A DNA stretch of 32,000 nt from Gracilimonas tropica DSM 19535 (GCF_000375425.1 NZ_AQXG01000001.1:561176-593175); one strand, 5' to 3'. Numbered from the stretch's first letter, positions 9,071-26,700 are shown. Program-made: numbers and translations. Notes: a model not told the origin generated them from the letters alone.

Positions 9071-9076
9071 AAACGG

Positions 9077-9622: not shown

Positions 9623-9658
9623 TGATTTTTTAAATATTTAGCCCTTTTGAGGGAGAAG

Positions 9659-11530
9659 TTAATTCAATGCTTTACGAATAGCATCTATAACCATATGCTT
9701 GGCCTGTTCGCCTTTATCAGAATAATTCATCTGTTGAAGTTCCATACGTATCAGATGTTGTTCCCGTTTGGGACGAACAGATAAAAGTTTATCGGCAATT
9801 TCATTATCAAAGCTATAAACTGCTTCCAATAAAAGTTCTGTGGGGATGTGCGCAATGGCTCTCTTGATCAAAGAATGGCTCAGGTGTGGAATTTGATCAA
9901 TAGTGATGAATTGTTCCTCTATAATCCCTGCAACAGGCGATCCGGAAGCTTTCAATTGTTCTATATAGTTAGCCTGATCTTCTAAAGGCATTTGTTGAAT
10001 TATTCTCAGGATATTTTCAGTCCCTTGTTTTAGCTCTTTTTCTACCTCCAAAATATCCATGGCTTTAGAGAACAATCGGGAGGATATCTCTTTGTGTTCT
10101 TTGTACGAAAGAGTATGTAATTGGGCTATACCAAGCATGATATCGACTGTTCGGTCTTTGCCGATCTTATTCAACACTTGAGCCGCTTCGGATTCCGGAA
10201 GATAATCAATAAGCAAAGCTGAAGTGATCCTATCTTCTCCATGAAGAAGCTGCACAATATGATAATCTTTAAGGTGATCAAGAAACTGGAATAGCCCCAA
10301 TTGTTGATGCTTGGCCTTAGCTGATCCGCTTCCAAGTTTATTATTGAGTGCGTCGGCGAATTCGGCAATAGCCGGTTTTGTTGCCTCCGGCGACAAGGGT
10401 TCTGTCGAATTTAACTGGGCCTGAATAGTTTCAAAGTAGGCAGGTTTTAATTCTCTTTTGAGGGCTTTTATAAGGTGCCGGTCTACTGTTTGAATTATAT
10501 TCGAAGCTTTTTCAGCCCCTTTTTTGAGATCGTTTTCCATCCAAAATTCAAATAGCAAGGCGACTTCTTTTGGGTGGTTTAAAAATTGGTCGGTAACAAA
10601 TGTTGTCCCTGCATTGCTGTTGGTTACAGATGCCTTATGGTCATCAATAAAGTCTTCAGCCGAGGGTTGTTTGCTTCCTGGAATTCGTTCACGGGGAACA
10701 TGCATTTCGTGTTTAAGATCATCTCTCGATAATCCGGCTTTATGATCTTTTTTCGGCTGTTTTCTTGAAGGGGAATGAGTAAGCCTTCCAATCAACAAAG
10801 TCAGTCCAACCAAAAGCAGTAATACAAACCCCGGGATATAGTCTTTTACTGAACCCAATAAGGTTTCCCGGGCATCTGCCGGTTCTTCAATTCTGACAGG
10901 AGGGAGCGACTCAATCCCAAAGTCGGGCATGTTGATCAGGGTTATATTTACTTCATCGCCCCGTACTTCATTGATCTTAGCCGCTATCCCGGCTATTAAC
11001 CGCATAAATTCAACCCGATCTTGTTGCCGTGAGATTGAAGAATCAGCATATACGTTGACGCTCAGCTTTAGGATCTGCAACCTTTGTATGGTTTGCTCAT
11101 TTATGATCGTTTGGGTGGTTTCCTGATCATTACTTTGAACTTCTGCCGTCCTCCGGTTTTCTTCAGGTAGAAAAGGCAGACCCGGCATTATTACATTCTC
11201 CTGTTGAGTTCGTCCGCCTTTGATGATTTGATTTTGAGTGGTCTGGAAAGTCTCGTCTACAAATCGTGCATCGATGTTTATATCCACAAAAAACTTTCGG
11301 CTATCAAAGTAATTGGATAATACGTTCAGAACTTGAGCATCGAACTGTTGTTCAAGGGTAATTACTTTTAATTCCAATGACTCAGCGGTATTGGGTTGAG
11401 CATATGTTACCGTGAAGGGAAGGAGGAGAAGAAAAAACGGGAGTATCACTTTCCATAAATGCGAGAGCAAAGCATTGCAATACTGCTTTACTTTCGAACC
11501 ATTTTGAAATGTAAGTGATGCTATTCTCAT
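9659..11530 (-). CDS. Membrane-anchored protein with a FliF/YscJ-like periplasmic ring-building part, one TM, and a FliG middle/C-terminal-like cytoplasmic part (623 aa)
   Basis: Signal-like N-terminus VILPFFLLLLPFTVTYAQ. The periplasmic block LKLSVNVYADSSISRQQDRVEFMRLIAGIAAKINEVRGDEVNITLINMP resembles the FliF/YscJ motif. TM segment GFVLLLLVGLTLLIGRL. Cytoplasmic FLDHLKDYHIVQLLHGEDRITSALLIDYLPESEAAQVLNKIGKDRTVDIMLGIA is FliG_M/MgtE_N-like. FITIDQIPHLSHSLIKRAIAHIPTELLLEAVYSFDNEIADKLLSVRPKREQHLIRMEL..AKHMVIDAIRKAL is FliG_C-like. Its ATG overlaps the upstream stop as ATGA. The CDS is solid; the function is inferred. Confidence 0.6.
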   Translation of the reverse strand: MRIASLTFQNGSKVKQYCNALLSHLWKVILPFFLLLLPFTVTYAQPNTAESLELKVITLEQQFDAQVLNVLSNYFDSRKFFVDINIDARFVDETFQTTQNQIIKGGRTQQENVIMPGLPFLPEENRRTAEVQSNDQETTQTIINEQTIQRLQILKLSVNVYADSSISRQQDRVEFMRLIAGIAAKINEVRGDEVNITLINMPDFGIESLPPVRIEEPADARETLLGSVKDYIPGFVLLLLVGLTLLIGRLTHSPSRKQPKKDHKAGLSRDDLKHEMHVPRERIPGSKQPSAEDFIDDHKASVTNSNAGTTFVTDQFLNHPKEVALLFEFWMENDLKKGAEKASNIIQTVDRHLIKALKRELKPAYFETIQAQLNSTEPLSPEATKPAIAEFADALNNKLGSGSAKAKHQQLGLFQFLDHLKDYHIVQLLHGEDRITSALLIDYLPESEAAQVLNKIGKDRTVDIMLGIAQLHTLSYKEHKEISSRLFSKAMDILEVEKELKQGTENILRIIQQMPLEDQANYIEQLKASGSPVAGIIEEQFITIDQIPHLSHSLIKRAIAHIPTELLLEAVYSFDNEIADKLLSVRPKREQHLIRMELQQMNYSDKGEQAKHMVIDAIRKALN

Positions 11531-14526
11531 TTAGGAGTACTTTCCGCTTCAGGTATTACCATTCTGTCTAATTGTTCCATATCCGGAATGTAAATATCCG
11601 GATCGTATTTTTTTGCTAAATCCCAATAAGATCTAGCATTTTCCTTCTCATTATTCAAGTAAGCCAAACTTCCTTTTAAAGCATAACCTTGAGCAGTTTC
11701 AAAAATATTCAGTGATTCATTAACAAGACTCATTGCCCGGCTCAGGTTCTTATTATAGAAAGCATTTTGTGCTTTAATAATCAATCTTAAAACTTCATCC
11801 AAATTTTGATCAAGTTCAGATTCCAATGCCAACATTTTTTCGTCCGTTTTTATCTCATTGGGAATGGCCTCTGCAGTAATAGGGGAGGCCTCAACTTCCG
11901 GCACTTCATAATCCTGAGGGACTACTAAAAAAGAAAGTCCTTCCACAAAATCCCCTTCCGGTATAGCTTCAACTTCAAATTTCAGACGTTCAGGTATCGA
12001 CTTAGATTGCAATTGTTGAAGATTACCCCGGTCAATTTCGAGACTATATGAACCCGGAGGCACTTCCCATTCATAAAAACTTCCGTCAGAGAATGTTCTT
12101 AATTCTTTAGCAAAATCTCCGTTAGAATCTGATAATCTTAGCTTTAATCCTCCGATCCCGGTTTTACTGCTATCATCTCTCATTCTTTCCACAAATCCAT
12201 CAATAACCCCAGACATATAAAATGGAATTTCCACCTTCTTAAAGCGATTTGGATCGGTGATGAGTCCAAATTTTTCAAATTCCGGAACCAGCATAGGATT
12301 CTGAATGGCGGCTTTATTCATTTCCATATTGTAATAGAAATAGGGCTGCATCTGGGTATAATAAAGAATTCCATCTTTAGACTGACTGATCGCTCCGGAT
12401 CGCTGGATTCTTACGGCATTTCCTTTAATGGGGTCGTCTCCATCGTCAAAGGTGCCATTGTTATTGTTATCCACAAAAAGCTGTATAGCAGTACCAGAAC
12501 GGCCAACCTGATCGCGGCTGGTAAAGAGGAAGTTGTTGTAGTTGGTGTCATACCCGATAGAACCTCGAATATTTTGTGTGAGATTGTTATTCCCACTTAC
12601 ATTATTAAAGGTGGTGTTGGTTCTTACTTTATCGAAATCTATCACGAAGCTAAAGCGGATCGTATTAAAGTCTCGGGCAAAATTCCGGCCTACAGATAAC
12701 TGGAACTGCCCCTTGTTAAATAGGTTTCTGGATACAAGAAATTCAGCAGATTCGAATTGATCCACAGTAGGCTGGTACCTCATTTGTGCTCTCAGGAAAA
12801 CACCCCGCATAAAATTGGGAAGGTTCCTGTTTCTGGAGATGTTATAAGTAGCAGAACTTTCGAAGAAAGCTGTTTGAGTTGGATTGAATGGATCGAAGGT
12901 ACCGGTGTATCGATCGCTGTATCCAATCCGAACATTCATTCTTCCAATTCTGGTATTCGCATCTAAGCGAAAGGAGGTATTACTGGTGTTAGTTCGGAAC
13001 CGGGAAAAAGCTGATGCTCTTAAATTGAAGGGTAATCCACCAAAATTAAATGGATAAAAAACACTGCTTACTAAACGTTTATCATCATTGGAGGGATTGT
13101 ATACTCCAAAACCACTTGTGAAATCCGTGTAATCTATGTTTATGCTTGCGGAATTCGGGTAGATGACGTTCAATAATCCCCTGTAATAAGCTTGAGAAGC
13201 TGCTTCAAGGGTTAACAGGTAATTAGAAGAAATTCTCGAAGATACACTGCCCGTAAAAGTCGGGAGATCAGTATGATATCCTTGAAAAAACTCTATACCT
13301 GCCTTAGCCGTGAGCCAGTCGGTGACACCATAAGCACCGTTACCCTGGGCAGTGAACTGCTGTGAAGTTTCTCCAAAAATAGGATTGTCTAACTGACCGG
13401 CATTGATCGTGTAGTTAAACACTCCCTGAGGCTGGAAAGTAAAAGGAATCTGTATACGATCGGAACGCTCAATGACCTGACCGGTAGGACCGTAAATTCT
13501 CAGGTCAAGTTGGGAGGTTCCATAAGAAACAGGGGTAAGAAATCGGTAATTACCTAATTCATCAGCTTCCTGAAAATCGATCAAAGCGTTGTTCATGTAT
13601 AGTTCCACTTCAGATTCCGGGATTGTGCTTCCTTGAACTACAAACTCATCAAACATCCTTCGGGGCTCAATAGGCTCATTTGATAATCGAACCCCGGTGT
13701 ATGAATTTCTTGTAAAACCGTCAGTTGTGGTTTGTCCGATGGTGAGTTTTGTCAACCAGGGCTGATCCCGGAACATATATCGCCAGCGAAGATTGTCGGT
13801 GGCAAAGTTGGTAAAATTATCCGAGTAGCTTCCGAAAATTGAACCCTGAAGATCTCCTCCGTAAAGCTGAATACCCAGATTGGTATTAAAATTATACACT
13901 TGGTTATTGGGGGTTGCGTTTGCAGAAATATTGTAATCTACAAAACCGCCATCTAGGAAGGGGCGCTGGCGGTCGTACATCAAATCATATTTGGTATCCT
14001 GAAGGCGATTTCGGTCCGCTACTTGCCTACGTTGAGATCGTATAGCCTGTTCTATTGCAGGCAGTTCCTGATTGGTTTGTAAGTTCAGGGTTAGATTGTT
14101 GAAGTTTATGGTAAAATCAAGTCCAAATGCTTCATAGAATACCTCAGCCCGCAAATAACTGTCAATTTCTCTGAGGATATAATCATCAACGGTAAGCTCA
14201 ATGGTTTTGTCTCCGAAACGGATCTGATTGGCTTGGAGATTAATACGATAGGGAGTTTGATCGACTCCAAATTTCCCTTCAATGACGAGTCCGTTAACAT
14301 TCTTGTCGATATTGAAAAGGCTGAAAAGTTCTGAGACGGGGAGATAGAACTCGTCATTCTTATAGTAAGAAATAACAACGGTGTTGATAACACCACGGTG
14401 ACGGAAGTCTAAGTAAACCTCAAAAACATCTTCGTCATTATTTTGTGCAGAAGCATCATTTGGGAAGAAGCCAATACAAAAAATGAAAGAGAATATGATT
14501 GATATTGAAGACTTCCATCGGTACAC
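11527..14526 (-). CDS. Usher-like outer-membrane protein with extra CarboxypepD_reg-like and TPR-like C-terminal modules (999 aa)
   Basis: Signal peptide ..FFPNDASAQ. VELYMNNALIDFQEADELGNYRFLTPVSYGTSQLDLRIYGPTGQVIERS resembles the usher plug/middle-domain pattern. A long region of alternating Gly/aromatic/Asn residues is typical of a beta-barrel. GIGGLKLRLSDSNGDFAKELRTFSDGSFYEWEVPPGSYSL is carboxypeptidase-regulatory-like. The C-terminus is TPR-like. GTG start 1 nt after the chaperone stop. Confidence 0.55.
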   Translation of the reverse strand: MYRWKSSISIIFSFIFCIGFFPNDASAQNNDEDVFEVYLDFRHRGVINTVVISYYKNDEFYLPVSELFSLFNIDKNVNGLVIEGKFGVDQTPYRINLQANQIRFGDKTIELTVDDYILREIDSYLRAEVFYEAFGLDFTINFNNLTLNLQTNQELPAIEQAIRSQRRQVADRNRLQDTKYDLMYDRQRPFLDGGFVDYNISANATPNNQVYNFNTNLGIQLYGGDLQGSIFGSYSDNFTNFATDNLRWRYMFRDQPWLTKLTIGQTTTDGFTRNSYTGVRLSNEPIEPRRMFDEFVVQGSTIPESEVELYMNNALIDFQEADELGNYRFLTPVSYGTSQLDLRIYGPTGQVIERSDRIQIPFTFQPQGVFNYTINAGQLDNPIFGETSQQFTAQGNGAYGVTDWLTAKAGIEFFQGYHTDLPTFTGSVSSRISSNYLLTLEAASQAYYRGLLNVIYPNSASINIDYTDFTSGFGVYNPSNDDKRLVSSVFYPFNFGGLPFNLRASAFSRFRTNTSNTSFRLDANTRIGRMNVRIGYSDRYTGTFDPFNPTQTAFFESSATYNISRNRNLPNFMRGVFLRAQMRYQPTVDQFESAEFLVSRNLFNKGQFQLSVGRNFARDFNTIRFSFVIDFDKVRTNTTFNNVSGNNNLTQNIRGSIGYDTNYNNFLFTSRDQVGRSGTAIQLFVDNNNNGTFDDGDDPIKGNAVRIQRSGAISQSKDGILYYTQMQPYFYYNMEMNKAAIQNPMLVPEFEKFGLITDPNRFKKVEIPFYMSGVIDGFVERMRDDSSKTGIGGLKLRLSDSNGDFAKELRTFSDGSFYEWEVPPGSYSLEIDRGNLQQLQSKSIPERLKFEVEAIPEGDFVEGLSFLVVPQDYEVPEVEASPITAEAIPNEIKTDEKMLALESELDQNLDEVLRLIIKAQNAFYNKNLSRAMSLVNESLNIFETAQGYALKGSLAYLNNEKENARSYWDLAKKYDPDIYIPDMEQLDRMVIPEAESTPK

Positions 14527-14527
14527 G

Positions 14528-15358
14528 TCAGGGGATAGTTACGGTCGTGGTTGCAGTTTCCGGTTCCATTTGAACTAAATCTGTCGGAGAAATATCGCTT
14601 CTGCGTGTTTCGAAAGTAACTTCTACTTGGTATTGACCTGGAGTTAACTCGCTTATATCTACAACTTCACTATGTACTCCATCGAAGTAGAAACTAGTGG
14701 AAGAAAATTTAGAAACTAAAACTTGGCCATCTTTCTTAATGTTAGTTTTTACAGATCCAAGAAAGGGAGAGTTGCCTCCTTTCTTGAACTTAGTTATTAA
14801 CTGTAATTCTCCATTTGAAACAGTACCTTTTTCAATATTCTCAATCATTATATCAGTCGTAGTATTACCGACTTTATAGAAAATACCAGATACTTGAGTA
14901 ATAACTACTCCTATATTAGCTCCAACACCTTGTTCATCACTAAGTTCTACAGGAGCACTTTCTGACTGAGAAATGGTTTTTAATCTAGTCCAGTATGTCC
15001 CATCATTTACTTTATTAGAACCTATTATTCTTAATCTAACAACTTGTCTTTGGCTAGGCTGCAATACGAAGTTTTTCGGGAAAGCCCTGATATCATCTGC
15101 TATCGAATACTTTTGAGCCAGAGCAGAGTCCTCATAAGTTGTTGTTTTATTCCCTTCCTCATCAGTTATAAAATACCCGAATGTAGTTTCAATGCTAATT
15201 TCTTGAGATTCACTAGAATTATTGATGACCATGAAGGTACCGAATTTAGAATCTTCTGTCAGAAACACATTAGTTGGAGCTATAGAAACTTGAGCAAAAG
15301 TAAGTACTGGGAGAATTGTTACAAGTAAAATTAACGAAAATGACTTTCTGAAATTCAT
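14528..15358 (-). CDS. PapD/CsuC-like periplasmic fimbrial chaperone (276 aa)
   Basis: Signal peptide ..LPVLTFAQ. VSIAPTNVFLTEDSKFGTFMVINNSSESQEISIE and IRAFPKNFVLQPSQRQVVRLRI match the two signature strands of pilus chaperones (..P..v.. ..v.N.s.. and f.v.P..f.l.p...q.vR+). The size fits two Ig-like domains. Confidence 0.6.
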   Translation of the reverse strand: MNFRKSFSLILLVTILPVLTFAQVSIAPTNVFLTEDSKFGTFMVINNSSESQEISIETTFGYFITDEEGNKTTTYEDSALAQKYSIADDIRAFPKNFVLQPSQRQVVRLRIIGSNKVNDGTYWTRLKTISQSESAPVELSDEQGVGANIGVVITQVSGIFYKVGNTTTDIMIENIEKGTVSNGELQLITKFKKGGNSPFLGSVKTNIKKDGQVLVSKFSSTSFYFDGVHSEVVDISELTPGQYQVEVTFETRRSDISPTDLVQMEPETATTTVTIP

Positions 15359-15440
15359 GGCTGTACTTATTATTTCACTTTGATAAGATAAGCTAAAGTA
15401 TAATTCATTATTTCCAATTTTACATCATTAATGGTTAGCT

Positions 15441-15477
15441 AAAAAAAAAGTCCCATAATCATTATGGAACTTTTTTT
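15441..15477 (-). terminator. Intrinsic terminator between the putative major subunit gene and the chaperone gene
   Basis: The minus-strand RNA reads GUUCCAU-AAUGAUU-AUGGGAC (7-bp stem with one G-U pair) followed by U9. An A7 tract upstream makes it potentially bidirectional. Confidence 0.7.
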
Positions 15478-15492
15478 GAAAGTTTAAAAAAC

Positions 15493-16041
15493 TTATTGAT
15501 AACTAACAGAAACATTGAGTGGGCCAGAGCCACCATCACCAGTATCTGAACTATATACTCCGGTTGTTGCACCATTTAATGAACCCAAGTTACCACCAAT
15601 GTAGATATAGAGAGCTCCAGTAGCAGATGTTTCACTAACAGTATTAGCAGTGTTTTTTGTCACATCACTTGAAGATGCAATTGCGTCAGTACTATTAGCT
15701 GAAATATCAGGTGTAAAAAGGATAGTATTACTATTTCCATCTCCTAGAGTTACTGTGGTCTGATCCCAATCAATAAGTAATTGGGTTTCGTTTGGACCAC
15801 TTACAGTGAGCTTACCAAATGCACTTCCACCCCCAACATCAGCGGTATTTGTACCTTGGGGATCCAATACTGGTGAGGAAGTTGCAGAAATAACTCCAAA
15901 ATCAACATCAGCATTTTTTGTGACAGTAATTGCAGCTTGAACGTCAGCAGCAATACTAACATCGGCTGATTGCGCATAAGCGCCTGCTGAGAATACAGCG
16001 GCTACGGCAAAAACGGTTAAAAGTGTTTTGAGCGTTTTCAT
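15493..16041 (-). CDS. DUF4402/SCPU-like fimbrial subunit, candidate major subunit (182 aa)
   Basis: I moved the start to the ATG at 16039-16041, giving the signal peptide MKTLKTLLTVFAVAAVFSAGAYAQ. The mature part is rich in Thr/Ser/Gly/Ala/Asn. It has the VDFG motif near the N-terminus and the C-terminal YIYIGGNLG....GVYS...LNVSVSYQ shared with the three upstream paralogs. It is monocistronic, flanked by hairpin terminators. Confidence 0.7.
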   Translation of the reverse strand: MKTLKTLLTVFAVAAVFSAGAYAQSADVSIAADVQAAITVTKNADVDFGVISATSSPVLDPQGTNTADVGGGSAFGKLTVSGPNETQLLIDWDQTTVTLGDGNSNTILFTPDISANSTDAIASSSDVTKNTANTVSETSATGALYIYIGGNLGSLNGATTGVYSSDTGDGGSGPLNVSVSYQ

Positions 16042-16082
16042 AATCGTGAGATTTAGTTTTATTGTTGTTTTAAATTCTGTGA

Positions 16083-16113
16083 TAAAATTATCGAAGTCTT
16101 TTACTTCATCCAA
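16083..16113 (-). promoter_or_regulatory. Candidate Bacteroidota-type promoter for the major subunit gene
   Basis: The minus strand reads TTG-N20-TAATTTTA, compared with the consensus TTG-N19-TAnnTTTG as I remember it. It lies ~45 nt upstream of the ATG. This is a pattern match only. Confidence 0.25.
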
Positions 16114-16163
16114 GTTAGATAGCTTTAATTAAAAGGGTCTAACTGTTTGCTGAAACCTGACTT

Positions 16164-16222
16164 AAAAAGTCTTAGATGACAATTTTGTCTGACCTAAAAT
16201 AAACATGTCTCATCAGACTTTT
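16164..16222 (-). terminator. Imperfect long hairpin / possible terminator after the three-gene minor-subunit block
   Basis: Inverted repeat AAAAGTCTtaGATGACA ... TGTCTCATCAGACTTTT: about 13 bp with bulges and a T-run on the minus-strand 3' side. Confidence 0.35.
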
Positions 16223-16258
16223 ATTTAGAGTTCTTTAATCTTTCTTGTGTTAGAGCCA

Positions 16259-16786
16259 TCAATCATAATCCACCGAAAGAACAATGTCGCCGGTATAAAC
16301 TCCATTGGGAACGTTGCCAACGTTTATGGCACCATATACATAGATGTACATGATCTTCCAGATATCATTGCGGCTTTCCAGGCGGGTGTCTTCATGAATG
16401 GAAACCATTCCGTTGTTATCCGACAGGATATCGGCTCCATTAATACTGTTTTGGCCTGTATTGTTGTATGCCATATTCAGTTCCAGAGGAATTTCAGCTT
16501 CGTTAGCTGGATTATCACTTTCAAGAGATTCGGGATACTGTAAAGTGAGATATACATTTTGGGTATGGAAGGCTTTAATGCTAAAAACCCCCATGTTGAT
16601 GTCCCCAAGCTGGATCTCGGTTCTCCCCGAATTAGTCACCTGAGTTCCAAAGTCAAGATCCTGCTCCACGGTAGCACTTAATTCCGGTTCAACCTTTAGC
16701 TGTAAATTGATGAACTGTGCAGATGTAGGAGAAACATAACAAGCTGAAAAAAGGAAAAGTAATATGATATTTCGAATCTTAATCAT
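16259..16786 (-). CDS. DUF4402/SCPU-like fimbrial subunit paralog (175 aa)
   Basis: Signal peptide ..YVSPTSAQ. LDFG motif. C-terminus MYIYVYGAINVGNVPNGVYTGDIVLSVDYD. The start overlaps the upstream stop by 8 nt (ATGATTAA). Confidence 0.7.
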   Translation of the reverse strand: MIKIRNIILLFLFSACYVSPTSAQFINLQLKVEPELSATVEQDLDFGTQVTNSGRTEIQLGDINMGVFSIKAFHTQNVYLTLQYPESLESDNPANEAEIPLELNMAYNNTGQNSINGADILSDNNGMVSIHEDTRLESRNDIWKIMYIYVYGAINVGNVPNGVYTGDIVLSVDYD

Positions 16787-17432
16787 AAGAAACGGTTATA
16801 GTAATCTCGCCGGAGTAACTTCCTGCATCTACGTTGCCCACATTTAAGGAGCCATAAATATAGATGTAAGCGGTCTCGTTAAATAGAGCCGGATTGTATC
16901 CTTCATAAACCGGGGTAGGAGGAGGTCCGGGTGGTTGATTTCCTCTCGCTAAAATAGGGAATTGTGCACTGGCAACATTAGAAGCTATCTGCATCAAAAC
17001 CGCCTGATTGGTGTTGTTTGATCCCCGGTTTGCATAAGCAGCTTGCAGCGTAAATGGAATGCAATTGGTGTTGGTTCCATTACAGGCCACGTCTGAGTCG
17101 AGGAAGAGATAATTGTCAGCTGTGATATCGACAATGACATCCAGGTATTTGACGCCCTCAATCATTAATATTTTGGCGTCTACAAGATCAATGGATTTAA
17201 CTCCTTCATTTTGAATAACGGTTCCAAATTCCAAATCTTCAGCTGGGTTGAGTTCAGAAAGAGTGACAGCATATTTGCTGCTGAAATCACCAAAATCTAT
17301 TTCCTGGGCTTTCAGCGAAACAGAAGATAGTTGAGTCGTAAAAACCATGATAAGAAGAAACAGAAAACCCGTTCTGCAAATGAATAAAGCAGATCCGAGT
17401 AGTGCATTATTTCGTTTCTTTTTATTTATCAT
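16779..17432 (-). CDS. DUF4402/SCPU-like fimbrial subunit paralog with a Pro-rich insert (217 aa)
   Basis: Signal/TM segment ..FLLIMVFTTQLSSVSLKAQ. LEFG motif. Insert GNQPPGPPPTPVYEGY. C-terminus AYIYIYGSLNVGNVDAGSYSGEITITVSYD. ATGA overlap with the upstream gene. Confidence 0.7.
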   Translation of the reverse strand: MINKKKRNNALLGSALFICRTGFLFLLIMVFTTQLSSVSLKAQEIDFGDFSSKYAVTLSELNPAEDLEFGTVIQNEGVKSIDLVDAKILMIEGVKYLDVIVDITADNYLFLDSDVACNGTNTNCIPFTLQAAYANRGSNNTNQAVLMQIASNVASAQFPILARGNQPPGPPPTPVYEGYNPALFNETAYIYIYGSLNVGNVDAGSYSGEITITVSYD

Positions 17433-17938
17433 ATGTAATCAATCTCAATGGTGAAGTCGCCTTCATAATTTCCTGGCGCTGCATTTTGAAGATTTACACG
17501 CCCGCCAACCCAGATGAAAAATTGTCCTTCTTCATTAAAACGGATATTGCGATTGTCCAATTCCAAAAGTTCGGAAGTAGATTGGTCTTCAATGGAATTT
17601 CCGGAAATTTCGTAGGTAAAAGTCAGTGTTCCGTCTCCGTCAATTTGAGTGAGCTCACGTTCAGGAACATAATTTAATCTGAATTCGGCGTTCGGAGTAC
17701 CAACTGCAATCATATATCCGGCGTTTAAACTTGTTACAGGGTTTACATAGATCTCCTGCTGACCCGGTTGAGCATTGCCGAATTGCATGGTATTAATGGT
17801 AATGAGTTCGATAGATTGGATCACTTCTGCACTTACATTTACACGTGCAGAAATACTTTGATCCTCTCCGTTTTGAGCATGCAAATTCTGGAAACAGAAA
17901 ATTAATAATAAAAATAGGGCTGAGAGAACTCTGTGCAT
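17429..17938 (-). CDS. DUF4402/SCPU-like fimbrial subunit paralog (169 aa)
   Basis: I moved the start to the ATG at 17936-17938, giving MHRVLSALFLLLIFCFQNLHAQ. MQFG motif. C-terminus FFIWVGGRVNLQNAAPGNYEGDFTIEIDYI. Confidence 0.65.
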   Translation of the reverse strand: MHRVLSALFLLLIFCFQNLHAQNGEDQSISARVNVSAEVIQSIELITINTMQFGNAQPGQQEIYVNPVTSLNAGYMIAVGTPNAEFRLNYVPERELTQIDGDGTLTFTYEISGNSIEDQSTSELLELDNRNIRFNEEGQFFIWVGGRVNLQNAAPGNYEGDFTIEIDYI

Positions 17939-18086
17939 TATACCTAAAGCTATAATCTTAATATTAGCGGTATAAAGTTCGTAGTAATTGGCCAACAATA
18001 ATAGTTAATATCCTTTAATTAGCTTGATGTAACACAAGTTAAAAGGCTTTAAGATTTCTCTTGAACATGTAGGATTTCAGGCTAAT

Positions 18087-18470
18087 TCACCAGGCAAAAG
18101 CATTGAAATAAAGTGCGGGAAGTTCCATTTCACCGGAACGGAGATTTAATTTACGTGACATGCGTTCTGTTTCGGTCTCGTTTGGTTTCACAATTTCGAA
18201 ATTATATTCCAATTGTTCGCCAACGTATCTGCTCGTGAATCTAATTTCGGCGGTATAAATGCTGTCGGTGTCTGCATCTGTTAACTGAACCGGACGAGTT
18301 GAAAGCGGGTAAATGTTTCCTGTTACCCGGATGATATCACGCCCCGGTACAAATGCGCTGTCTTCAAGATTAGGCTGAAGATTTACATTGAAAATTACAG
18401 TTGACTGTGCCTGTACGGAACCTAATCCAACGGCCAGAAAAAAAGCTATAACTGACAACAAATGTTTCAT
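18087..18470 (-). CDS. Small secreted beta-rich protein (127 aa), function unknown
   Basis: Clear signal peptide MKHLLSVIAFFLAVGLGSVQAQ. Alternating beta-strand pattern (VIFNVNL, IIRVTGNIY, YTAEIRF, LEYNFEIV) reminiscent of a CBM/Ig-like sandwich. Ends ..YFNAFAW. Confidence 0.6.
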   Translation of the reverse strand: MKHLLSVIAFFLAVGLGSVQAQSTVIFNVNLQPNLEDSAFVPGRDIIRVTGNIYPLSTRPVQLTDADTDSIYTAEIRFTSRYVGEQLEYNFEIVKPNETETERMSRKLNLRSGEMELPALYFNAFAW

Positions 18471-18529: not shown

Positions 18530-19897
18530 TTATTGAATTTTTTCTTTCCAATATACAATGGTGAAAATACTTTCACGAGGAAATGACGGAGGAATGGTCT
18601 CTTTAAGGCGATCATCATAAATATAATTTTTTGAAAAACCTGAGGCCGTACCATAATTATTAAAAGTACCAACCGGACCACGATTTCTCTGAATGATTCC
18701 GCCCAAAATATTCAAGGTTCCCCTGGGACTTCCACTATTGTAATTCTCAACGGTGAATGCGTTATCAAGAGCCATAATTGAAGCATGTATTGTAAGGTTA
18801 CTGCTTCCGTTATCTTGATGAGCATCTTTATCAACAATTACATTGCCTTCGCTCACAAGACCCAAAAGGTCGGGAGATGGGGTATCGGGATCATCGAGTG
18901 GATTTGTATCGTAATAGATATCTCCCATGATCTCAATTTCATCAGTCGCATGCACTGTATATTTTCCCTTGATTTCGCCTTTCACTCTTGCAGTACCCTC
19001 AACACTTATGAGTCCATTGTAATTCGATAATGAATAGTTGGTGTGATTAGTTGTGCCTTCGCAAGTGTACCAATTCCGATAACCGCAGGCATAAGTGTAA
19101 ATGTCTGCTGCCTGAACCTGGGGATTACCATTGCCATCCACAAAAAACTCAAGCACTTTGTCGCTATCAAAGGTTAGTCCGCCCATATTTGCGGTGGTTA
19201 TCAGTTCATTGATTTGAGCTTGGTCGGGGAGATCTCGCGTTGTAGCCATGTTGAAATTTGTATTGCCATTAAAAATGGGAGTCTCATCTCCATGGCGCTC
19301 ATCGGGATCATCGCTGTTTGGGTCTCCATCTTGTCCTACCCAGTCATTGGGGCTGCTGACGTCTCCATTGAAGGTAGGAGAACCGGCGATTCTTAAGGTT
19401 CCATTTGTATGAACGGGTCCGGTGATGACATCATCATCATAGAAATAAATTTCGATATCATCGTTGGGATGGGGAAGTGTTTCTGCATCGGTGAAGTAAG
19501 AGAATTTTGAAAATGAATCCCGCTGTAAAAGCACTTCAATCTCAGCGGTGTAGCCTTCGTATTCTGCACGGCTGATCATCAAAACTTTGTATTGATTCCA
19601 TTCTGTAACGCTGTGATCCACGGTATCAAGTCCGGATGAATTCATGCCATACATCAATAATTGTCCTTTTCCGGCATAGTCCTGATCGGTGCTTATGGTG
19701 CCGGTCCATTCCATATCACGAAACAGATTTTGTACAGCATTATCCACCAGGCTTGTTGCAACATTTTTCGCCTGCTGTTCTTTGAAATAGTTGGCGGATT
19801 CTTCGGGCAATACTTCCAACCGGTTGTTATTTGATATCTGAATAATTCCTGAAATAACAACAAGACCGCTAACTAAAAGTAACAATGCGCGTCCCAT
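18530..19897 (-). CDS. PilX/GspK-class large pseudopilin-like protein, set 1 (455 aa)
   Basis: N-terminal hydrophobic helix MGRALLLLVSGLVVISGIIQ. Motifs ITGPVHTNGTLRIAGSPTFNGDV, LLGLVSEGNVIV and GGIIQRNRGPVGTF..GFSKNYIYDDRL..IPPSFP match what I remember from PilX-like/DUF4900-type proteins in type IV pilus minor-pilin operons. A strong AGGAGG Shine-Dalgarno sits 5 nt upstream of the ATG. Confidence 0.6.
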   Translation of the reverse strand: MGRALLLLVSGLVVISGIIQISNNNRLEVLPEESANYFKEQQAKNVATSLVDNAVQNLFRDMEWTGTISTDQDYAGKGQLLMYGMNSSGLDTVDHSVTEWNQYKVLMISRAEYEGYTAEIEVLLQRDSFSKFSYFTDAETLPHPNDDIEIYFYDDDVITGPVHTNGTLRIAGSPTFNGDVSSPNDWVGQDGDPNSDDPDERHGDETPIFNGNTNFNMATTRDLPDQAQINELITTANMGGLTFDSDKVLEFFVDGNGNPQVQAADIYTYACGYRNWYTCEGTTNHTNYSLSNYNGLISVEGTARVKGEIKGKYTVHATDEIEIMGDIYYDTNPLDDPDTPSPDLLGLVSEGNVIVDKDAHQDNGSSNLTIHASIMALDNAFTVENYNSGSPRGTLNILGGIIQRNRGPVGTFNNYGTASGFSKNYIYDDRLKETIPPSFPRESIFTIVYWKEKIQ

Positions 19898-19920
19898 AGG
19901 AGCCTCCTTTTATACGGGTA

Positions 19921-20511
19921 TTAATACCATGGTTTGTTAATATTGTTAGGAGAAAAAGTGCGTTTCCAAACAGTGCGGTGATAGGTATTATTAACATCAC
20001 CGCCGGATACAAATCTGGAATTCATGGGTTCTCCTGATTCCACCATAACTTCTACTTCAATGCTTACATCTCTTTGCTGGAACAAAGTTGAAATGTCGTT
20101 TACTACATTATTATCCTTATCGTAGTACATGAGTTTGAAATGGGTAACAGGGTATTTTGTGATGGTTCCATTTCCATCGTCACGATACAAGTAAAAATCG
20201 TTGGGATTGGTTGTGGTGGTGACTTTATCATCTTCAACGGTGTACCAGGTTATATTTCCTTCCGAGGTTTTAAATTCGATTTCATCCGGCTCGGCAGTAA
20301 TGATGGGATCATCCATAAATGAGGTAGTATTGTTATAACCAACCCTTTTCAGGTCAAAGGAAATGACCTCAACGATATCGTTCAGGCGCTGCTGATTGAT
20401 GGCAGAAATGGTTGTTTCTTGCGTACTGGAGGATAGCTGCATATTGTAGGCAAGGATGCTGAGCAGCATCAAACCGCCTACCACAAAACTTGTAATGATG
20501 CCCATATTCAT
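19921..20511 (-). CDS. PilW/GspJ-class pseudopilin-like protein, set 1 (196 aa)
   Basis: N-terminal helix MNMGIITSFVVGGLMLLSILAY, then LNDIVEVISFDLKRVGYN (PilW-like ..dlr.aGy). Shares TNPND, F.L.YYD and W+KRFSP.N blocks with the set-2 paralog. Confidence 0.6.
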   Translation of the reverse strand: MNMGIITSFVVGGLMLLSILAYNMQLSSSTQETTISAINQQRLNDIVEVISFDLKRVGYNNTTSFMDDPIITAEPDEIEFKTSEGNITWYTVEDDKVTTTTNPNDFYLYRDDGNGTITKYPVTHFKLMYYDKDNNVVNDISTLFQQRDVSIEVEVMVESGEPMNSRFVSGGDVNNTYHRTVWKRTFSPNNINKPWY

Positions 20512-20520
20512 AAATTCACC

Positions 20521-20940
20521 CTATTCTTTAAAGTAAGTTTTAATGTATTCCAGTTGAACCTGAACGGGAGGGTCGGTTGCATCAGAAGTAACCTGAACGG
20601 TAACACGGTACTGTTTTTGGGTGGAAGTGTTTTCAATCAAAACTGAATTTCGGGTCACTTCATACTCTTCTGAAAATTCATCGCTGGAACCATATTCTAC
20701 GGTTGTTGTAATGGGATCGGAGTCAAACAGATATTGGTTGGACGTAGGGTTCAAATGGATTTCCGGAGCCCAGCGTATGTTGTCCAGCTCATCCTGTGCC
20801 AAAGCTATCGCCCGATATTCAATTGTAGATTGGATAGACGTGCTCGTAGTATTCATGAAGCTTCGGGAGGTGTTGATCGTAAGCATGGAGAAAACGACCA
20901 TCGCGACCATCAGAAATATGACATCAGAAAAGTCATTCAT
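20521..20940 (-). CDS. PilV/GspI-class small pseudopilin-like protein, set 1 (139 aa)
   Basis: N-terminus MNDFSDVIFLMVAMVVFSML, followed by RAIALAQDELDNIRW. The size and helix-plus-beta layout resemble small minor pilins. Confidence 0.55.
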   Translation of the reverse strand: MNDFSDVIFLMVAMVVFSMLTINTSRSFMNTTSTSIQSTIEYRAIALAQDELDNIRWAPEIHLNPTSNQYLFDSDPITTTVEYGSSDEFSEEYEVTRNSVLIENTSTQKQYRVTVQVTSDATDPPVQVQLEYIKTYFKE

Positions 20941-21329
20941 ATGATCTAAATAATTTGGTTATTCATTGCAACTCAACTACAAGAGTATCGAGGGTAGTAG
21001 ATTGTTACAAATTGCTTAAAAAAACACGAAGCATAAGCAAGGCTGTAAGGCCTAAAAACATCTAACTGTATTTAAAATAACTACTGGATAATACTAATAG
21101 CGTTAGATTTTATTATTATTTAAAAGATAGGAATTTTGTTTGAGCAGAAGCGATTATGGGAAGGTTTGTATTGCCAATTTTACGAAGTTAATGCAATGAT
21201 CGCACCTAAGAATCAGTGATTAAGGTCAGCAATTTATATCTCCCAAGATGGATGAATTAACGTCCGTTTCTATCGAAGAAGTTTTCTAAAGTATATTAAC
21301 AGAACGAAAGCCAGGAGGTAGGATTGATT

Positions 21330-22463
21330 TTACTCAAAGGTACTCAGCCGAACGTATCTGTTTTGTTTTAGCATGGAAGCTGAGGCAAGTTGTGCATACT
21401 TTTCAGCGGTGCAATCATACTGTATATCAATGGTACCGCCCAGGTCAATATCAAAATTGGAGTAGTTGTTTTCAGTTTTGCCTACAAGTACGGAGCCATT
21501 TATTCTTGGAGTTCCCCGTCCGGTCATGGTATATGCATTTTCAAAGATTACCAATCCGTTAAAAGTAAAATTTCCGGCTACAGAAAGTTCCCCTTCGTAT
21601 TCCAGTTCCCCATTGGTTCTAACTACCATAATGCCATATCCTTCGGAAATACCACCGGTTAGTTTGGCGTAATCTTCTACAAAAAATACACCGGGATTGT
21701 CAGCCGTACCCATGCTCCCTTTATAATTACCACTGACTTTCACCACCTCATTCATTTGAGCAAGCCGAGCTACTAATTCATCAACGGGTTCGTACGATAT
21801 ATCTGGGTCAACAGCTATGGCAGCACTGTCACTTTCAAAATGCTCAGAGTTATCTCCGCCTGACAGCCATTCAACAAAGTTATCGGCTCCGGTAATTTTA
21901 TCTGCTGAACCTTCATCCCTTACGGTCATAGCTGGTTTTGAGGGACAAGTACCGCTGGCATCGTTACCGCTTATTAAGGCGCTACCACTCGCTGCAAAGG
22001 AGAAATCATGTTCACCGACTGCTAAAGACATCGCTGATTGAAATTCGGGGACGAAGTGCATGGCTGTTTTTACATAAGTCGTAATAATATCAATGCTCTC
22101 TTTTTTATTTGTGAGGGGATTCTGATACCAGGAGGAAGCATATATTTCAAGAGTATCTCCCTGTAAAGAAGAGAATGCCCCGGTCGAAGTCGATTTAATA
22201 AGATTGTAGTAGAGAGAGATAGAATCACCGTCAATTTCTTCGATCCAGGGTGAGCTTTTTGTGGGATGCCATGAGCCTCCGCTTTCATTAATTCTTTCCA
22301 TTGTAATTTGAGCGGCAGTGAATGCTTTGTTTCTGATTTCAGTCTCATATGCGGAGACGGCATTATTTGCTGTGATACCTTCTCTTTGGCCCTGTATGCC
22401 TACTTGGATGATGCCAATTACAATTACTGCACCGGCACTAATTATCAACATTGCTCGTCCCAT
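21330..22463 (-). CDS. PilX/GspK-class large pseudopilin-like protein, set 2 (377 aa)
   Basis: N-terminus MGRAMLIISAGAVIVIGIIQ is nearly identical in pattern to the set-1 protein. The C-terminal beta-helix-like block is GYGIMVVRTNGELEYEGELSVAGNFTFNGLVIFENAYTMTGRGTPRINGSVLVG. Confidence 0.6.
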   Translation of the reverse strand: MGRAMLIISAGAVIVIGIIQVGIQGQREGITANNAVSAYETEIRNKAFTAAQITMERINESGGSWHPTKSSPWIEEIDGDSISLYYNLIKSTSTGAFSSLQGDTLEIYASSWYQNPLTNKKESIDIITTYVKTAMHFVPEFQSAMSLAVGEHDFSFAASGSALISGNDASGTCPSKPAMTVRDEGSADKITGADNFVEWLSGGDNSEHFESDSAAIAVDPDISYEPVDELVARLAQMNEVVKVSGNYKGSMGTADNPGVFFVEDYAKLTGGISEGYGIMVVRTNGELEYEGELSVAGNFTFNGLVIFENAYTMTGRGTPRINGSVLVGKTENNYSNFDIDLGGTIDIQYDCTAEKYAQLASASMLKQNRYVRLSTFE

Positions 22464-22478
22464 TGTGTATTCAGTTAA

Positions 22479-23078
22479 TTAATTATTTGGTCTTAAATTT
22501 ACCGGCGAAAATCGCTTCTTCCAGTAGGTTTTGGTGTACCTGCCAGAGTCTGTATTCCGCTGAGAAAGGGTATAATTACTTTGCAATTCCAGTTCTATCT
22601 CGACCTGCACAATCTTAGAGAAATCAGAACTACTCACCGGGGTAGTCATAGGAATGTCAGAGCCGTAAGAGTCGTAGTAATTGATCCTGAACTTTGTGAC
22701 ACCAACGGTTATTTCAGTTTTATCACCGTCAACTGTGCGTACCAATATCTCATCATTTGGGTTTTTTGAATTTGTAACAGGAGCGTCGGTGTATTTCCAT
22801 GTAACAAGTTCGACATTACCAGCATCATCGAGATTACTGTAGAAAGAGATTTCAGTACTATCAGCTTTTACAAAAATATTTGAAAGTATTCCCTTTTCCT
22901 GATAACCAATTTTTGGAATATCGTGGATGATCATATCCTCAATTGCTTTGCTGTGACTGGATTTTGTAAGAGTTGTTGAAACTTCCTGATTGCTATAATT
23001 CACATTTTGAGTCACAGAAAGGATGGTTAACATCAGGAACCCGGCTATTATGTAACTAATTAATATTCCGTAATTCAT
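22479..23078 (-). CDS. PilW/GspJ-class pseudopilin-like protein, set 2 (199 aa)
   Basis: N-terminus MNYGILISYIIAGFLMLTILSV. IEDMIIHDIPKIGYQ. KNPND, F+INYYD and WKKRFSPVN blocks are shared with the 19921..20511 protein. Confidence 0.6.
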   Translation of the reverse strand: MNYGILISYIIAGFLMLTILSVTQNVNYSNQEVSTTLTKSSHSKAIEDMIIHDIPKIGYQEKGILSNIFVKADSTEISFYSNLDDAGNVELVTWKYTDAPVTNSKNPNDEILVRTVDGDKTEITVGVTKFRINYYDSYGSDIPMTTPVSSSDFSKIVQVEIELELQSNYTLSQRNTDSGRYTKTYWKKRFSPVNLRPNN

Positions 23079-23084
23079 AGTATT

Positions 23085-23630
23085 CTAATCTGCATAATAA
23101 CTTCGGATGAAACTGAAATTGTAGATGGTGTTTTCATTATCTAAGTTTTTTTGAAGGAACTTGGACTGAATTTCAACCGTGATTCTTTTCAGAGTAGATT
23201 TGCCACTTACCACCCAAAAATCTTGATAATTAGTTGTCTCAATATATTCTACTCTTACTGCGACATCGTAATCAACCCCTCCAATTGATACGCTTTCCCT
23301 AAAGCCATGAAAATCGTCAAAGTCGTCAAATTGAGTGCGGTTGACTTCAGGGTCGGCAGAGGTGTCATCAGGTCCTAATGCGGAAAATCCAGAGGGGATA
23401 TAAACCGGAACCGTGCTGTTTCCTTCAGAGTCGTAAGTTGTCTCTTCATCAAATGCCAGTGCCCTGGATTCTTCAATTATATCCTGAGCGTAGGCTACTA
23501 CTTGTCCTTCCAGCTGCCCTTCAATCATGGTTGAATTGTTCACTTGTATCACGCGATTAGCATTTAATGCCATCGTCGATACAATCACCATGGAGAGCAT
23601 CACATATAAAACTTCATCATATCCAGCCAT
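23085..23630 (-). CDS. PilV/GspI-class small pseudopilin-like protein, set 2 (181 aa from ATG; 183 aa if TTG at 23636 is used)
   Basis: The track start at 23636 is a TTG. The ATG two codons downstream gives MAGYDEVLYVMLSMVIVSTMAL. VVAYAQDIIEE is comparable to AIALAQDELDN in set 1. There is an acidic FDDFDDFHGF block. Confidence 0.55.
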   Translation of the reverse strand: MAGYDEVLYVMLSMVIVSTMALNANRVIQVNNSTMIEGQLEGQVVAYAQDIIEESRALAFDEETTYDSEGNSTVPVYIPSGFSALGPDDTSADPEVNRTQFDDFDDFHGFRESVSIGGVDYDVAVRVEYIETTNYQDFWVVSGKSTLKRITVEIQSKFLQKNLDNENTIYNFSFIRSYYAD

Positions 23631-23777
23631 GTCCAACCACTTTATTTATTGGATAAAGATAATATTAAAATGTTTTAATAAATAGTGATTTTTTCAAACC
23701 ACTTTATCTGTAGTACGAAGCTTTTGTAAAGGCAGATTGGAAAAAATTACAAGAAAGGTATATGGAAGAGAGTACTA

Positions 23778-26700
23778 CTATTTGATGAGAAGCATTTTCT
23801 TGGTACGCACATTATCGTTGGTAATTATGCGGTACAAATATAAACCACTGGCTAAGCTGCCTGCTCTAAAACTAATGGTATGTCGGCCTGCGGGCATTTT
23901 TTCTGAAACCAGGGTATGTACTTTTCTTCCCAGGATATCAAATACCTCAAGGCGGACATCACTTTCTTCTGTTAACCCAAATGGAATAGTGGTTGTTGGA
24001 TTAAAAGGATTCGGATAATTTTGATAGAGATAAAATTCTTCAGGGATGTTGGCTTCAATTTCTTCGGTGGTTAATCTGAGCACAAACCGGGACCGGTCCA
24101 AATTACTTCGTTTCACAGGCGCTCCTTCACTCGGGCTGGAGATGAACAGCTTGGAGTCGGAGTTATAACTAAAGGTATAGCTGGCGTTTTCCCTCAGGTC
24201 AATTTGCTTGCCAGAGTCGTTGTCAATCAGGATTAACAGCCACTCTTCAGGGACATTTCGAAGCATATCGCGGGAGATGGTGAATTGTCCCATTTCCGGT
24301 CTGCCGTGTCTGAAAGCAGCAAAATGAAGAGGAATATTTTGCCGGTATTCAAACTCCCTTGGAATATTATTGATGGCCAGTTCTGTTCCATTTTCAAGAG
24401 TAGAATAGAATTCAATATGGGTATCTGAAAATGGAACCAGTCGAAGCGCATCATGCATATCTTTACCAATGGATGCATTTTTGCCGCCCATAATAAATGT
24501 TTGCTTTGTAAGCTCTTCTCCACTTGCCCTCAATGCAATAACCGGAGCATAATTCTCGTAATCCTGATGTTTTTTTTCTGATTCCGGAGCCTCTTTCCGT
24601 AAGAAATTACCGCCGGTAGTTTTGGCTTCCGTATCTACTATCAACTCCGGACCTGGACCATTAGCCTTCACCCAAAATCCCTGGAAGGGAGGGATTATTC
24701 CACTTCCTAAAGAACCGGTTGAACCGTTCCAGGTTAAAAATTCACCGTTACCATTGTTAGCCGCAGGATCCCAAATATAAATGGTGGATTCCATGTTGGT
24801 TTTGGTCCAGTTCGCATTATCATCCCAATTGATGGCAGCTCCAAAAGGATTTCCAACGAAATTCCATCCCGAGTCGGCTGAAGGCGTATATGTGACTCCA
24901 AAATCAAATTCTGAACTTCCTGAACCAAATTCTTGTCCGGCTACATCCAGGGTATCGGGAAGCGGATCGTTATAAAGTGGGTCTGCGGGAATGTTTCCAA
25001 AGAAATACACCCAGTATCCTCGTCCGCCGGCTACAGAGTTAGTGGCGTTGGCAGGAGCGCGTAACCGGTCATTATCTGTGGCTGGCAGTCCTTCAACATT
25101 AGTATCATAATCCTCGAGATACCACATTACATTAGGCTGAAGAGTGTCTCCGGGGTTGGAGCCCGTGGAGTAGGTCGCACCGGTATATCCCTGGGTCAGG
25201 GTGCCATCCAGAAAATCTCCGAAGGTTGAGTTAACAGGTGAAGAAAGCATTCTCCAGCCGCGAACGCCGGAAATTCTACGCTGGAATCTCAGATTTCCTG
25301 AGCCATAGGCCAAATTACTGGCCAGAAGGTTTATCCCGGAAGGAATCAATAATTCTCCATCGGTAAGTGTCAGCAATCCATTTACGGTGAGATTCTCTGA
25401 AATGGTGAGCGTATTTGGATTATCCAGTTCCAAATTGATAAAATCGGTGGGACTTACAATTTCCTGATCGGTATTTCCATTAAATATGACGGTCCCCAGG
25501 GTAATTTCAGAGATATTGAGATTTCCTCCTACCGTGAGGGAGTCATTATTACTACCCAGTATCTGACCATTTCCGGTTACATCCCCGGAGACGATGAAAT
25601 TGATTCCTCCGGCTACATTTAGCTCAGCACTTGCTTCTATGGACAGTTCTGCAATTTCGGTGTCGGTTTGAGAGACCGCCGGAAACTCATTTCCTACAGC
25701 AGGATTAGCGGGAATCAAAACTACTGACGACGCATTCGGCACGCTGTTGACGTTCCAGTTATCCGGATCGAAATAATTGGAGGCATCCGAAAGTGAACCC
25801 AGCTGACTTTCCCAAATATGACTGAAAGAAGCGAACTCTACTTCGGCCTCATCGGTGATATCATCACCATTAAGCGTGCCGGAAATAGTTGCGATGCCAG
25901 TAGATGTGGACGAAGTTAATGTGGCCGAATATGTTCCGTCTCCATTATCTGTAACTCCGCCAATAGAACCGAGTGTAGTGCTCAAGGCAACCGTTTCTCC
26001 CCCAGAATCAATAATATTCCCAAATTCGTCTTTTGCCTGAACAGTGATGGCAGAAGTGGAGGACCCATCGTTCAGAATTACTGTGGGAGAGGCGGTGATG
26101 CTTGTCTGCGTCTCATCAACCGGGCCGGGGATAACAAGGAAAGAATTACTGGTACCACTTTCGGAACCGGCAGAATTGGTGGCGGTTATCGTACAGCGTT
26201 TTACGTTGGTGATATTTACAGTCAGCGAAGACAACACTCCCGAACTGAAATTAGGAGTAGTTCCTTGTCCGGCTCCAAGATTACAGGACGACGTAACACT
26301 CACCGTTCCATTAAAAGAAGTGATGGTATCGCCAATGCCGTCAATAGCTGTAATTTTGATATTGAAATTCTGTCCGGCAAACTTCTGGCTGATGTTTCCA
26401 CTTGGAACGCGTTCAATTTTGAAACCAGTGAGAACACCGGCATTTACAACCTGGAAGGTGTTGGTAACCGCGTCATCAAGTCCTGTGCTGGTTGCGGTGA
26501 GGCGTTTGGTGCCAGTCTCATCAATTTCGAGATTTGCGAATTCGGCTATCCCAAGTGTGTTGGTCTGCGTGGTGGTAGTTCCTGAAAGAGTTCCGCTGCC
26601 GGAGCTTAAAGCTATGGAAACATTGGTTCCGGCAGTTTTAACTTCATTTCCAAACTGATCGGTAAGCTGAACCCGCACAGAAGGGGAGATTACCGTATTT

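Follow-up and report, generated by a model that had tools for sequence, protein, structure and literature searches.

Gene organization of the locus

We analyzed a 32,000-nucleotide stretch of the genome of the Balneolaceae member Gracilimonas tropica DSM 19535 (GCF_000375425.1, NZ_AQXG01000001.1:561176-593175), hereafter referred to as the window, in which six tightly packed open reading frames (ORFs) on the minus strand form two small-medium-large sets. These six genes probably represent two paralogous sets of minor-pilin-like proteins of the type IVa pilus (T4aP), likely serving as its tip or priming subunits. An initial annotation had described sets of 181, 199, and 377 amino acids (aa) and of 139, 196, and 455 aa, each running from small to large along the direction of transcription, and our ORF calls agreed with it in both coordinates and sizes. 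Together with the spacer between the sets and a fourth gene of set 1, the features are as follows.

23085-23630, minus strand: S2, small subunit of set 2; 181 aa from the ATG at 23630 used by orthologs; PilV/GspI-like, leaderless
22479-23078, minus strand: M2, medium subunit of set 2; 199 aa; PilW/GspJ position
21330-22463, minus strand: L2, large subunit of set 2; 377 aa; N-domain homologous to that of L1, C-terminal beta-rich domain different
20941-21329, no strand: spacer between the sets; 390 bp, AT-rich
20521-20940, minus strand: S1, small subunit of set 1; 139 aa
19921-20511, minus strand: M1, medium subunit of set 1; 196 aa; paralog of M2
18530-19897, minus strand: L1, large subunit of set 1; 455 aa; ComZ/PilX-type with a beta-solenoid; carries DUF4900
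18087-18470, minus strand: p127, fourth gene of set 1; 127 aa with a Sec signal peptide; small, beta-rich, not pilin-like

The intergenic gaps within each set were 6-23 bp. The mechanical ORF of S2 begins two codons before the ATG listed above, with a TTG at 23636, and S1 was 100% identical to a G. tropica protein named ‘type IV pilus modification PilV family protein’ by NCBI. The 390-bp spacer is probably the boundary between two transcription units; neither sigma-70 promoter nor terminator signals were detected in it above chance. The conserved gene p127, which the initial annotation had omitted, belongs to set 1. In the order of transcription, a 2525-aa protein is followed by S2, M2, L2, the spacer, S1, M1, L1, p127, four DUF4402 proteins, and proteins of 276 and 999 aa, and then by a 623-aa FliG_M/FliG_C protein, a TPR protein, MotA, and a MotB/OmpA/SPOR protein. 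Beyond the left end of the window, only housekeeping genes were found.

Paralogy between the two sets

The paralogy of the two sets is uneven, but their conservation is far beyond chance. M1 and M2 were paralogous over their full length (30% identity and E = 1e-23, BLASTP), and the KNPND/TNPND, F.(L/I).YYD, and W.K.FSP.N blocks that had been pointed out in the middle proteins were found in the sequence. The match between S1 and S2 was confined to the first 56 residues (E = 8e-9, BLASTP), with the S family alignment additionally lining up the C-terminal strands of the small proteins; their shared (D/E)V(I/L)(F/Y).M..MV and A.AQD blocks were likewise present. Pairwise alignment therefore upheld the proposed paralogy for the middle pair at full length and for the N-terminal part of the small pair, but not for the large pair, as L1 and L2 showed no significant similarity by BLASTP. 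A link between the L2 and L1 family profiles (hhalign probability 98.5%, E = 3.6e-15) was limited to the N-terminal ~115 residues, and both large proteins begin with MGRA(M/L)L as initially described. Their supposed likeness at both ends was accordingly retained for the N-terminal domain and abandoned for the rest, since the C-terminal domains of L1 and L2 differ.

Predicted structures of M2 and L1

AlphaFold2 (AF2) models were obtained for M2 and L1, and the order of secondary structure elements was read from these models. The M2 model (predicted local distance difference test, pLDDT, 83.8) consisted of a helix at residues 3-56 followed by seven strands. The L1 model (58 sequences; pLDDT 89.1; predicted template modelling score, pTM, 0.81) showed a helix at residues 2-60, strands at 67-128, a run of short strands (~134-426) that forms a solenoid, and one last strand spanning 441-454. 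A helix of 54-59 residues, close to the ~53 residues expected of the helix that holds the alpha1-N segment in pilins, was followed by strands in both models. The fold of M1 is covered by the M2 model because of their full-length homology, and that of L2 is covered by the L1 model because their N-domains are homologous.

In a Foldseek search of the L1 model against the PDB, the only significant matches were three ComZ chains (6QVI at the top; E = 2e-10 to 6e-10, probability 1.0). The runners-up were ice-binding beta-solenoids at E values of at least 0.1 (the first at E = 0.12) and a Streptococcus sanguinis minor pilin (E ~2). In ComZ of Thermus thermophilus, a triangular beta-solenoid sits between the penultimate and last strands of a GspK-like pilin domain, and the nearest relative of this solenoid is an ice-binding protein (PMC6561018); the Foldseek order obtained for L1 is the same pattern as that reported for ComZ itself. 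In L1, the match to 6QVI and the order of strands also place the solenoid between the penultimate and last strands. Given this fold order, the Foldseek match, and the architecture of ComZ, L1 is therefore of the ComZ structural type. The M2 model returned nothing from the PDB at E <= 0.001. DUF4900 (PF16241) was matched by L1 at residues 119-182 (31.4 bits against a gathering cut-off of 29.4), where the head strands meet the solenoid in the model, and by 16 of 16 aligned L1-family members (best E = 1.9e-12).

Genomic context in related lineages

In relatives, the triplet family sits in T4aP gene clusters, at the PilV, PilW, and PilX/ComZ positions. On a contig of a metagenome-assembled genome (MAG; locus L059), a 134-aa pilin-like protein, PilC, and PilB were encoded first, followed by a 168-aa protein, then by S, M, L, and a p127 homolog, and lastly by the beginning of a PilT-like ATPase. 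The S, M, L, and p127 genes of this locus were homologous to those of the window, and its PilC and PilB matched Myxococcus xanthus PilC (3JC8; E = 3.7e-29) and, over the full length, Geobacter PilB (E = 2e-95), respectively. In a Balneolales MAG (L058), PilB was followed by two triplets and then by a PilT-like gene. In two further loci (L066 and L067), PilB preceded S, M, and a large protein of the L2 type, with PilT (E = 3e-67) coming next; proteins of 524 and 298 aa came after PilT and were read as a putative PilM/N fusion and PilO, respectively. A PilB fragment lay directly upstream of S-M-L in L007, and PilB was also located upstream of the triplet in L057. In an Armatimonadetes locus (L065), the L1 homolog (hhalign 98.1%, E = 1e-13) was preceded by a 167-aa protein with an above-threshold N_methyl domain and by one of 303 aa with a weaker N_methyl match, and a secretin lay 3.4 kb away. 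The S-family profile aligned with this 167-aa prepilin-type protein across the whole alpha1 helix (hhalign 58.8%, E = 9e-5).

These PilB/PilC/PilT clusters, the M2 and L1 models, and the match of L1 to ComZ support the pilin-like identity and the GspI/J/K-PilV/W/X order given in the initial annotation. The PilV-family name that NCBI gives S1 and the weak ComGG matches of two S-family members also favor this reading. Its suggestion of a type II secretion system (T2SS) was not borne out, because the machinery beside the relatives is that of a T4aP, with PilT present; the G. tropica sets are most likely type IVa minor-pilin-like and not T2SS components.

Locus L005 is probably from Ignavibacteria, judging by the similarity between its large subunit and the large subunits of two Ignavibacteria loci, L062 and L064. 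The triplet of this locus was flanked by two histidine-kinase/sigma-54-activator pairs. Five paralogous small secreted proteins followed these pairs and showed no relation to DUF4402 by hhalign; the features cover 2035-4967, 10632-12798, and 13090-15867.

Conservation and synteny of the sets

A genome scan with the L1 alignment retrieved 57 loci, nearly all from Balneolaceae, plus two from Ignavibacteria and one from Armatimonadetes; Balneolaceae predominated because a single narrow pattern was used. The gene order of the sets was kept across the 57 loci. The conserved unit in the synteny survey of the fetched loci was S1-M1-L1-p127, with 55 ORFs for M1 and 53 for p127 downstream of L1. In ~30 of the 57 loci, this quartet lay between the giant protein (2525 aa in the window) and the DUF4402 cluster, in the order giant protein, S1, M1, L1, p127, three to four DUF4402 proteins, the 276-aa protein, and the 999-aa protein. 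The quartet also occurred alone amid unrelated genes, for example in Balneola sp. EhC07 (L043). Set 2 was optional; it either preceded S1, which is its place in the window, or came after p127.

At E <= 0.001, the M family comprised 970 cluster representatives (clustering at 50% identity), and a Pfam family was found for no member. The C-terminal YFNAFAW of p127, whose gene invariably came after L1, was conserved; no family assignment was found for this protein in Pfam or in a profile search of PDB sequences, with CBM_20 matched weakly by two members. The whole S1-M1-L1 set was tandemly duplicated in L017 and L023, and L1-p127 alone was duplicated in L038; the module therefore duplicates readily. 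The L1 gene was broken into two ORFs in L012 (10001-11335) and L055 (2349-3972), which may reflect a frameshift, a pseudogene, or an assembly error.

Neighboring genes

The giant protein (23778-31355, minus strand; 2525 aa) contained DUF2341, Laminin_G_3, Invasin_D3, and a C-terminal sorting domain of the type IX secretion system (T9SS). The proposal that the sets are matched to this protein as cargo or adhesin found no support, because a T9SS cargo is exported by another route. In most Balneolaceae loci, a homolog of ~2500-2700 aa immediately preceded the minor-pilin set, and several loci contained a second T9SS-tail protein further upstream (seen in the L001 and L002 gene calls).

On the other side of the sets, four paralogous secreted DUF4402 proteins are followed by the 276-aa secreted protein and the 999-aa protein (11527-17998, minus strand). 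The fibre-subunit-like layout would suit a chaperone and an usher for the last two; neither was matched in Pfam or PDB sequence searches, and this assignment found no support. Beyond them (6743-11530, minus strand) lie the 623-aa FliG_M/FliG_C protein, which has a weak FliF C-terminal match, the TPR protein, a MotA/ExbB protein, and a MotB-plug/OmpA/SPOR protein; further flagellar genes are absent. This FliG/Mot module was found downstream of the 999-aa gene in many Balneolaceae loci and was missing in L001, L012, L034, and L063, where the homolog of the 999-aa protein had ~1170 aa, with a SPOR domain in L001. The rpoN gene (sigma-54; 5238-6746, plus strand) stands next to the end of the large locus and occupies the same position in L001 despite the missing FliG/Mot module. 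A sigma-54 promoter scan of the window gave no match above chance. Nothing of relevance to DUF4900, DUF4402, or the pili of Balneolaceae or Gracilimonas emerged from literature searches.

A possible role at the pilus tip

By analogy with GspIJK, ComZ-PilA2, and the minor-pilin/PilY1 priming complex of Myxococcus (PMC7541494), the small protein of each set would take the PilV/GspI position, the medium protein that of PilW/GspJ, and the large protein that of PilX/GspK/ComZ. The three proteins would enter the inner membrane via their N-terminal hydrophobic helices, and these helices would bundle to form a blunt complex capped by the bulky large subunit. Such a complex would prime filament extension on the PilC/PilB platform and finish at the pilus tip, the position also proposed for ComZ, which binds the GspI-like PilA2 (PMC6561018). 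L1 would place a triangular beta-solenoid at the tip and L2 a different beta-rich domain; because these distal domains differ, the two sets would give pili with different tips or properties. No prepilin-peptidase cleavage would be needed, since the subunits start at the hydrophobic helix without a leader, Gly-1, or Glu5. The Sec-exported p127 is probably a periplasmic accessory of set 1.

The initial annotation had proposed two alternative tip or priming complexes, and the use of alternative sets within one genome has precedents: Myxococcus genomes normally carry several minor-pilin sets (PMC7541494, PMC8833165), and a preprint proposes that two cyanobacterial sets with beta-solenoid PilX subunits prime two kinds of pili (10.64898/2026.02.12.705559). 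By the same analogy, G. tropica may employ its two sets as alternatives.

Evidence against the assignment

Several observations weigh against a minor-pilin assignment, the foremost being the N-termini. Prepilin-peptidase cleavage and Glu5 are regarded as near-universal in type IV filament subunits, and pilin-finding software relies on both. A class III signal peptide is missing from all six proteins, as are Gly-1 and Glu5, and none of them matched the N_methyl domain in the Pfam and NCBIfam scans. The pattern G|[FM]xxxE was absent from the first 40 residues of all S, M, and L orthologs (0/66, 0/72, and 0/72, respectively) and of all M-family representatives (0/141). Hidden leaders are excluded, as an in-frame stop codon precedes the ATG of each of the six genes by 2-6 codons. 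The hydrophobic segment starts at residue 7 in S, 3 in M, and 4 in L, and the conserved N-termini are M-x-x-[YF]-[SA]-[DE] directly followed by the hydrophobic helix in S (M-[AVS]-G-Y at the start of S2 orthologs), M-N-x-G-[LI] in M, and M-G-[RK] in L. Residue 6 of the unprocessed S protein is a conserved D/E, to which M and L have no counterpart; D/E was present at residues 5-8 in 57 of the 141 M-family representatives. In the hhalign register with the prepilin-type protein of L065, the +5 position of S is aromatic. We know of no precedent for motif-less subunits at the PilV or PilW position, and for the large subunit the precedent is ComZ. The latter went unrecognized by PilFind, as characteristic pilin motifs are missing from it (PMC6561018).

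The gene content and database searches point in the same direction. A FimU/GspH-type fourth pilin is absent from each set, leaving three pilin-like genes instead of the usual four core ones, and the predicted folds cover only M2 and L1 of the six proteins. Searches of Pfam, NCBIfam, and PDB sequences with the six proteins and the family alignments gave no pilin-family match: the sole Pfam/NCBIfam matches were DUF4900 on L1 and, weakly, ComGG in two S-family members, and the M, L1, L2, and p127 family profiles found nothing meaningful among PDB sequences. The profile-level kinship to GspI/J/K or PilV/W/X that the initial annotation had anticipated did not materialize, since no sequence profile links were found and hhalign comparisons with the single E. 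coli sequences of GspJ, GspI, and PpdB gave N-terminal alignments that were in register but not significant. Moreover, type IV filament machinery genes were found neither in the window nor in the 21-kb Gracilimonas and Balneola loci, where PilB and PilT were absent throughout; in these genera, the sets either adjoin a T9SS adhesin and a cluster of DUF4402 genes or occur by themselves. The evidence for T4aP machinery comes from relatives and not from G. tropica.

Alternative explanations

The position of the sets in Gracilimonas and Balneola could be explained by co-option, in which the crown Balneolaceae proteins no longer serve type IV pili and instead form an inner-membrane-anchored periplasmic complex, acting as a scaffold or force-transmitting element. 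Such a complex would serve the giant T9SS adhesin, the four DUF4402 proteins, the 276-aa and 999-aa proteins, and the FliG-like/MotAB module. The order shared by ~30 of the 57 loci, the lack of PilB and PilT in all the 21-kb loci, and the loss of the leader and Glu5, which would fit proteins that are no longer polymerized, agree with this explanation. We nevertheless consider it unlikely: the quartet also stands alone amid unrelated genes, as in L043, the FliG/Mot module is missing from several loci that retain the quartet, and basal Balneolales and other lineages with equally leaderless N-termini have the triplet inside T4aP clusters. Minor-pilin operons are, in addition, often located apart from the machinery genes, which also counts against co-option.

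The missing processing motif would equally suit bitopic membrane proteins that are not assembled at all, their pilin-like shape being ancestral only, and that act as regulators or periplasmic binding proteins. Regulatory roles have been suggested for cyanobacterial pilin-like proteins, though for ones without the alpha1-N helix. With the hydrophobic alpha1-N helix kept here, the S-M-L order strict across phyla, triplets between PilB and PilT in relatives, and the motif-less ComZ still needed for pilus-dependent DNA uptake (PMC6561018), this explanation appears quite improbable. It is highly improbable that the triplets are GspI/J/K equivalents capping a T2SS pseudopilus, even though the gene sizes and order fit GspI/J/K (with E. 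coli sizes) and the folds of ComZ and PilA2 were described as T2SS-pseudopilin-like (PMC6561018). A PilT retraction ATPase flanks the relatives (E = 3e-67), and the other flanking ATPase is PilB-type, with its best matches to T4aP PilB over the full length. The L066 neighbors were read as the putative PilM/N fusion and PilO and none as GspC, GspL, or GspM, and no meaningful match to the T2SSI, T2SSJ, or T2SSK Pfam families was obtained, the closest being a single M-family member to T2SSJ at E = 0.099. Type IVa minor-pilin-like proteins with a tip or priming role therefore remain our preferred reading of the six genes.

Possible extent of leaderless pilins

A broader proposal, which we put forward tentatively and regard as possible but doubtful, is that Balneolales, Ignavibacteria, and related lineages run a T4aP in which all pilins are leaderless and independent of both the peptidase and N-methylation. 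Such pilins would begin at the alpha1-N helix, with neither Gly-1 nor Glu5. The proposal would cover the three minor-pilin types and may also include the major pilin, for which the 134-aa ‘MGQQQLLLIILG...’ gene of L059 is a candidate. This gene (31-435 of the contig) lies directly upstream of PilC and PilB, and its product, a candidate leaderless major pilin, starts with MGQQQLLLIILGTIIVAIAIVVG; a search of the remaining fetched loci and of the window turned up no homologs. For the Melioribacter roseus genome, pilT, pilQ, pilB, and pilC were reported, and pilA and pilD were not (PMC3534657), which would agree with a lineage in which motif searches miss the pilins and no peptidase is required, and provides a lead.

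Three minor-pilin-like families without a leader or Glu5, of which M alone comprises ~970 clusters without a Pfam model, are encoded by triplets that in relatives are situated between PilB/PilC and PilT, and type IV pili would consequently be under-called in Balneolales, Ignavibacteria, and related lineages. These families would also serve as a natural test of whether the priming complex requires leader cleavage and Glu5 for its assembly. The ComZ-type beta-solenoid tip and the presence of several tip sets per cell would be extended to another phylum, and DUF4900 would gain a function through the assignment of L1.

Comparison with known systems

The sets share the small, medium, and large gene order of the GspI-GspJ-GspK pseudopilus tip of the T2SS (PDB 3CI0; PMC6561018), and the N-terminal helices would be expected to bundle in a similar way, with the large subunit as the cap. 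They differ from GspIJK in having neither a Pfam T2SSI/J/K match nor a class III signal peptide. In place of the alpha-domain of GspK, the large subunit has a beta-solenoid, and the machinery in relatives is that of a T4aP with PilT.

The FimU-PilV-PilW-PilX minor pilins, which act with PilY1 in Pseudomonas and Myxococcus (PMC7541494, PMC8833165), resemble the present sets in having an operon apart from the machinery genes, several alternative sets per genome, and the same proposed priming or tip role. Each set here has three pilin-like genes, not four, and lacks a prepilin motif. Unlike the PilY1 systems, the locus has no PilY1 homolog (no PilY1-type domain occurred among the Pfam matches of the window proteins scanned), and set 1 is followed instead by the 127-aa secreted protein, which lacks a pilin helix. 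The cyanobacterial PilX_Com and PilX_EPS sets (preprint 10.64898/2026.02.12.705559) are also two in number and have a PilX solenoid inserted before the C-terminal strand; they come from a different phylum, and their families are described as having a pilin fold.

Another close counterpart is the ComZ/PilA1-3 system of Thermus (6QVI, 6QVF; PMC6561018). The identity between ComZ and L1 is ~10%, with no sequence-level match found in the profile search of PDB sequences, and L1 is the shorter protein (455 aa compared with 498-518 residues in the matched ComZ chains). Thermus PilA1-3 are canonical prepilins, whereas the small and medium subunits here lack the motif, and, unlike Thermus, the locus encodes two sets and one extra Sec-exported protein. 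Both ComZ and L1 combine a pilin domain and a triangular beta-solenoid with the last strand placed after the solenoid, and both lack a recognizable pilin motif, the hydrophobic helix of ComZ starting from about residue 5. The ComZ gene, moreover, directly follows those of the smaller minor pilins, as does that of L1.

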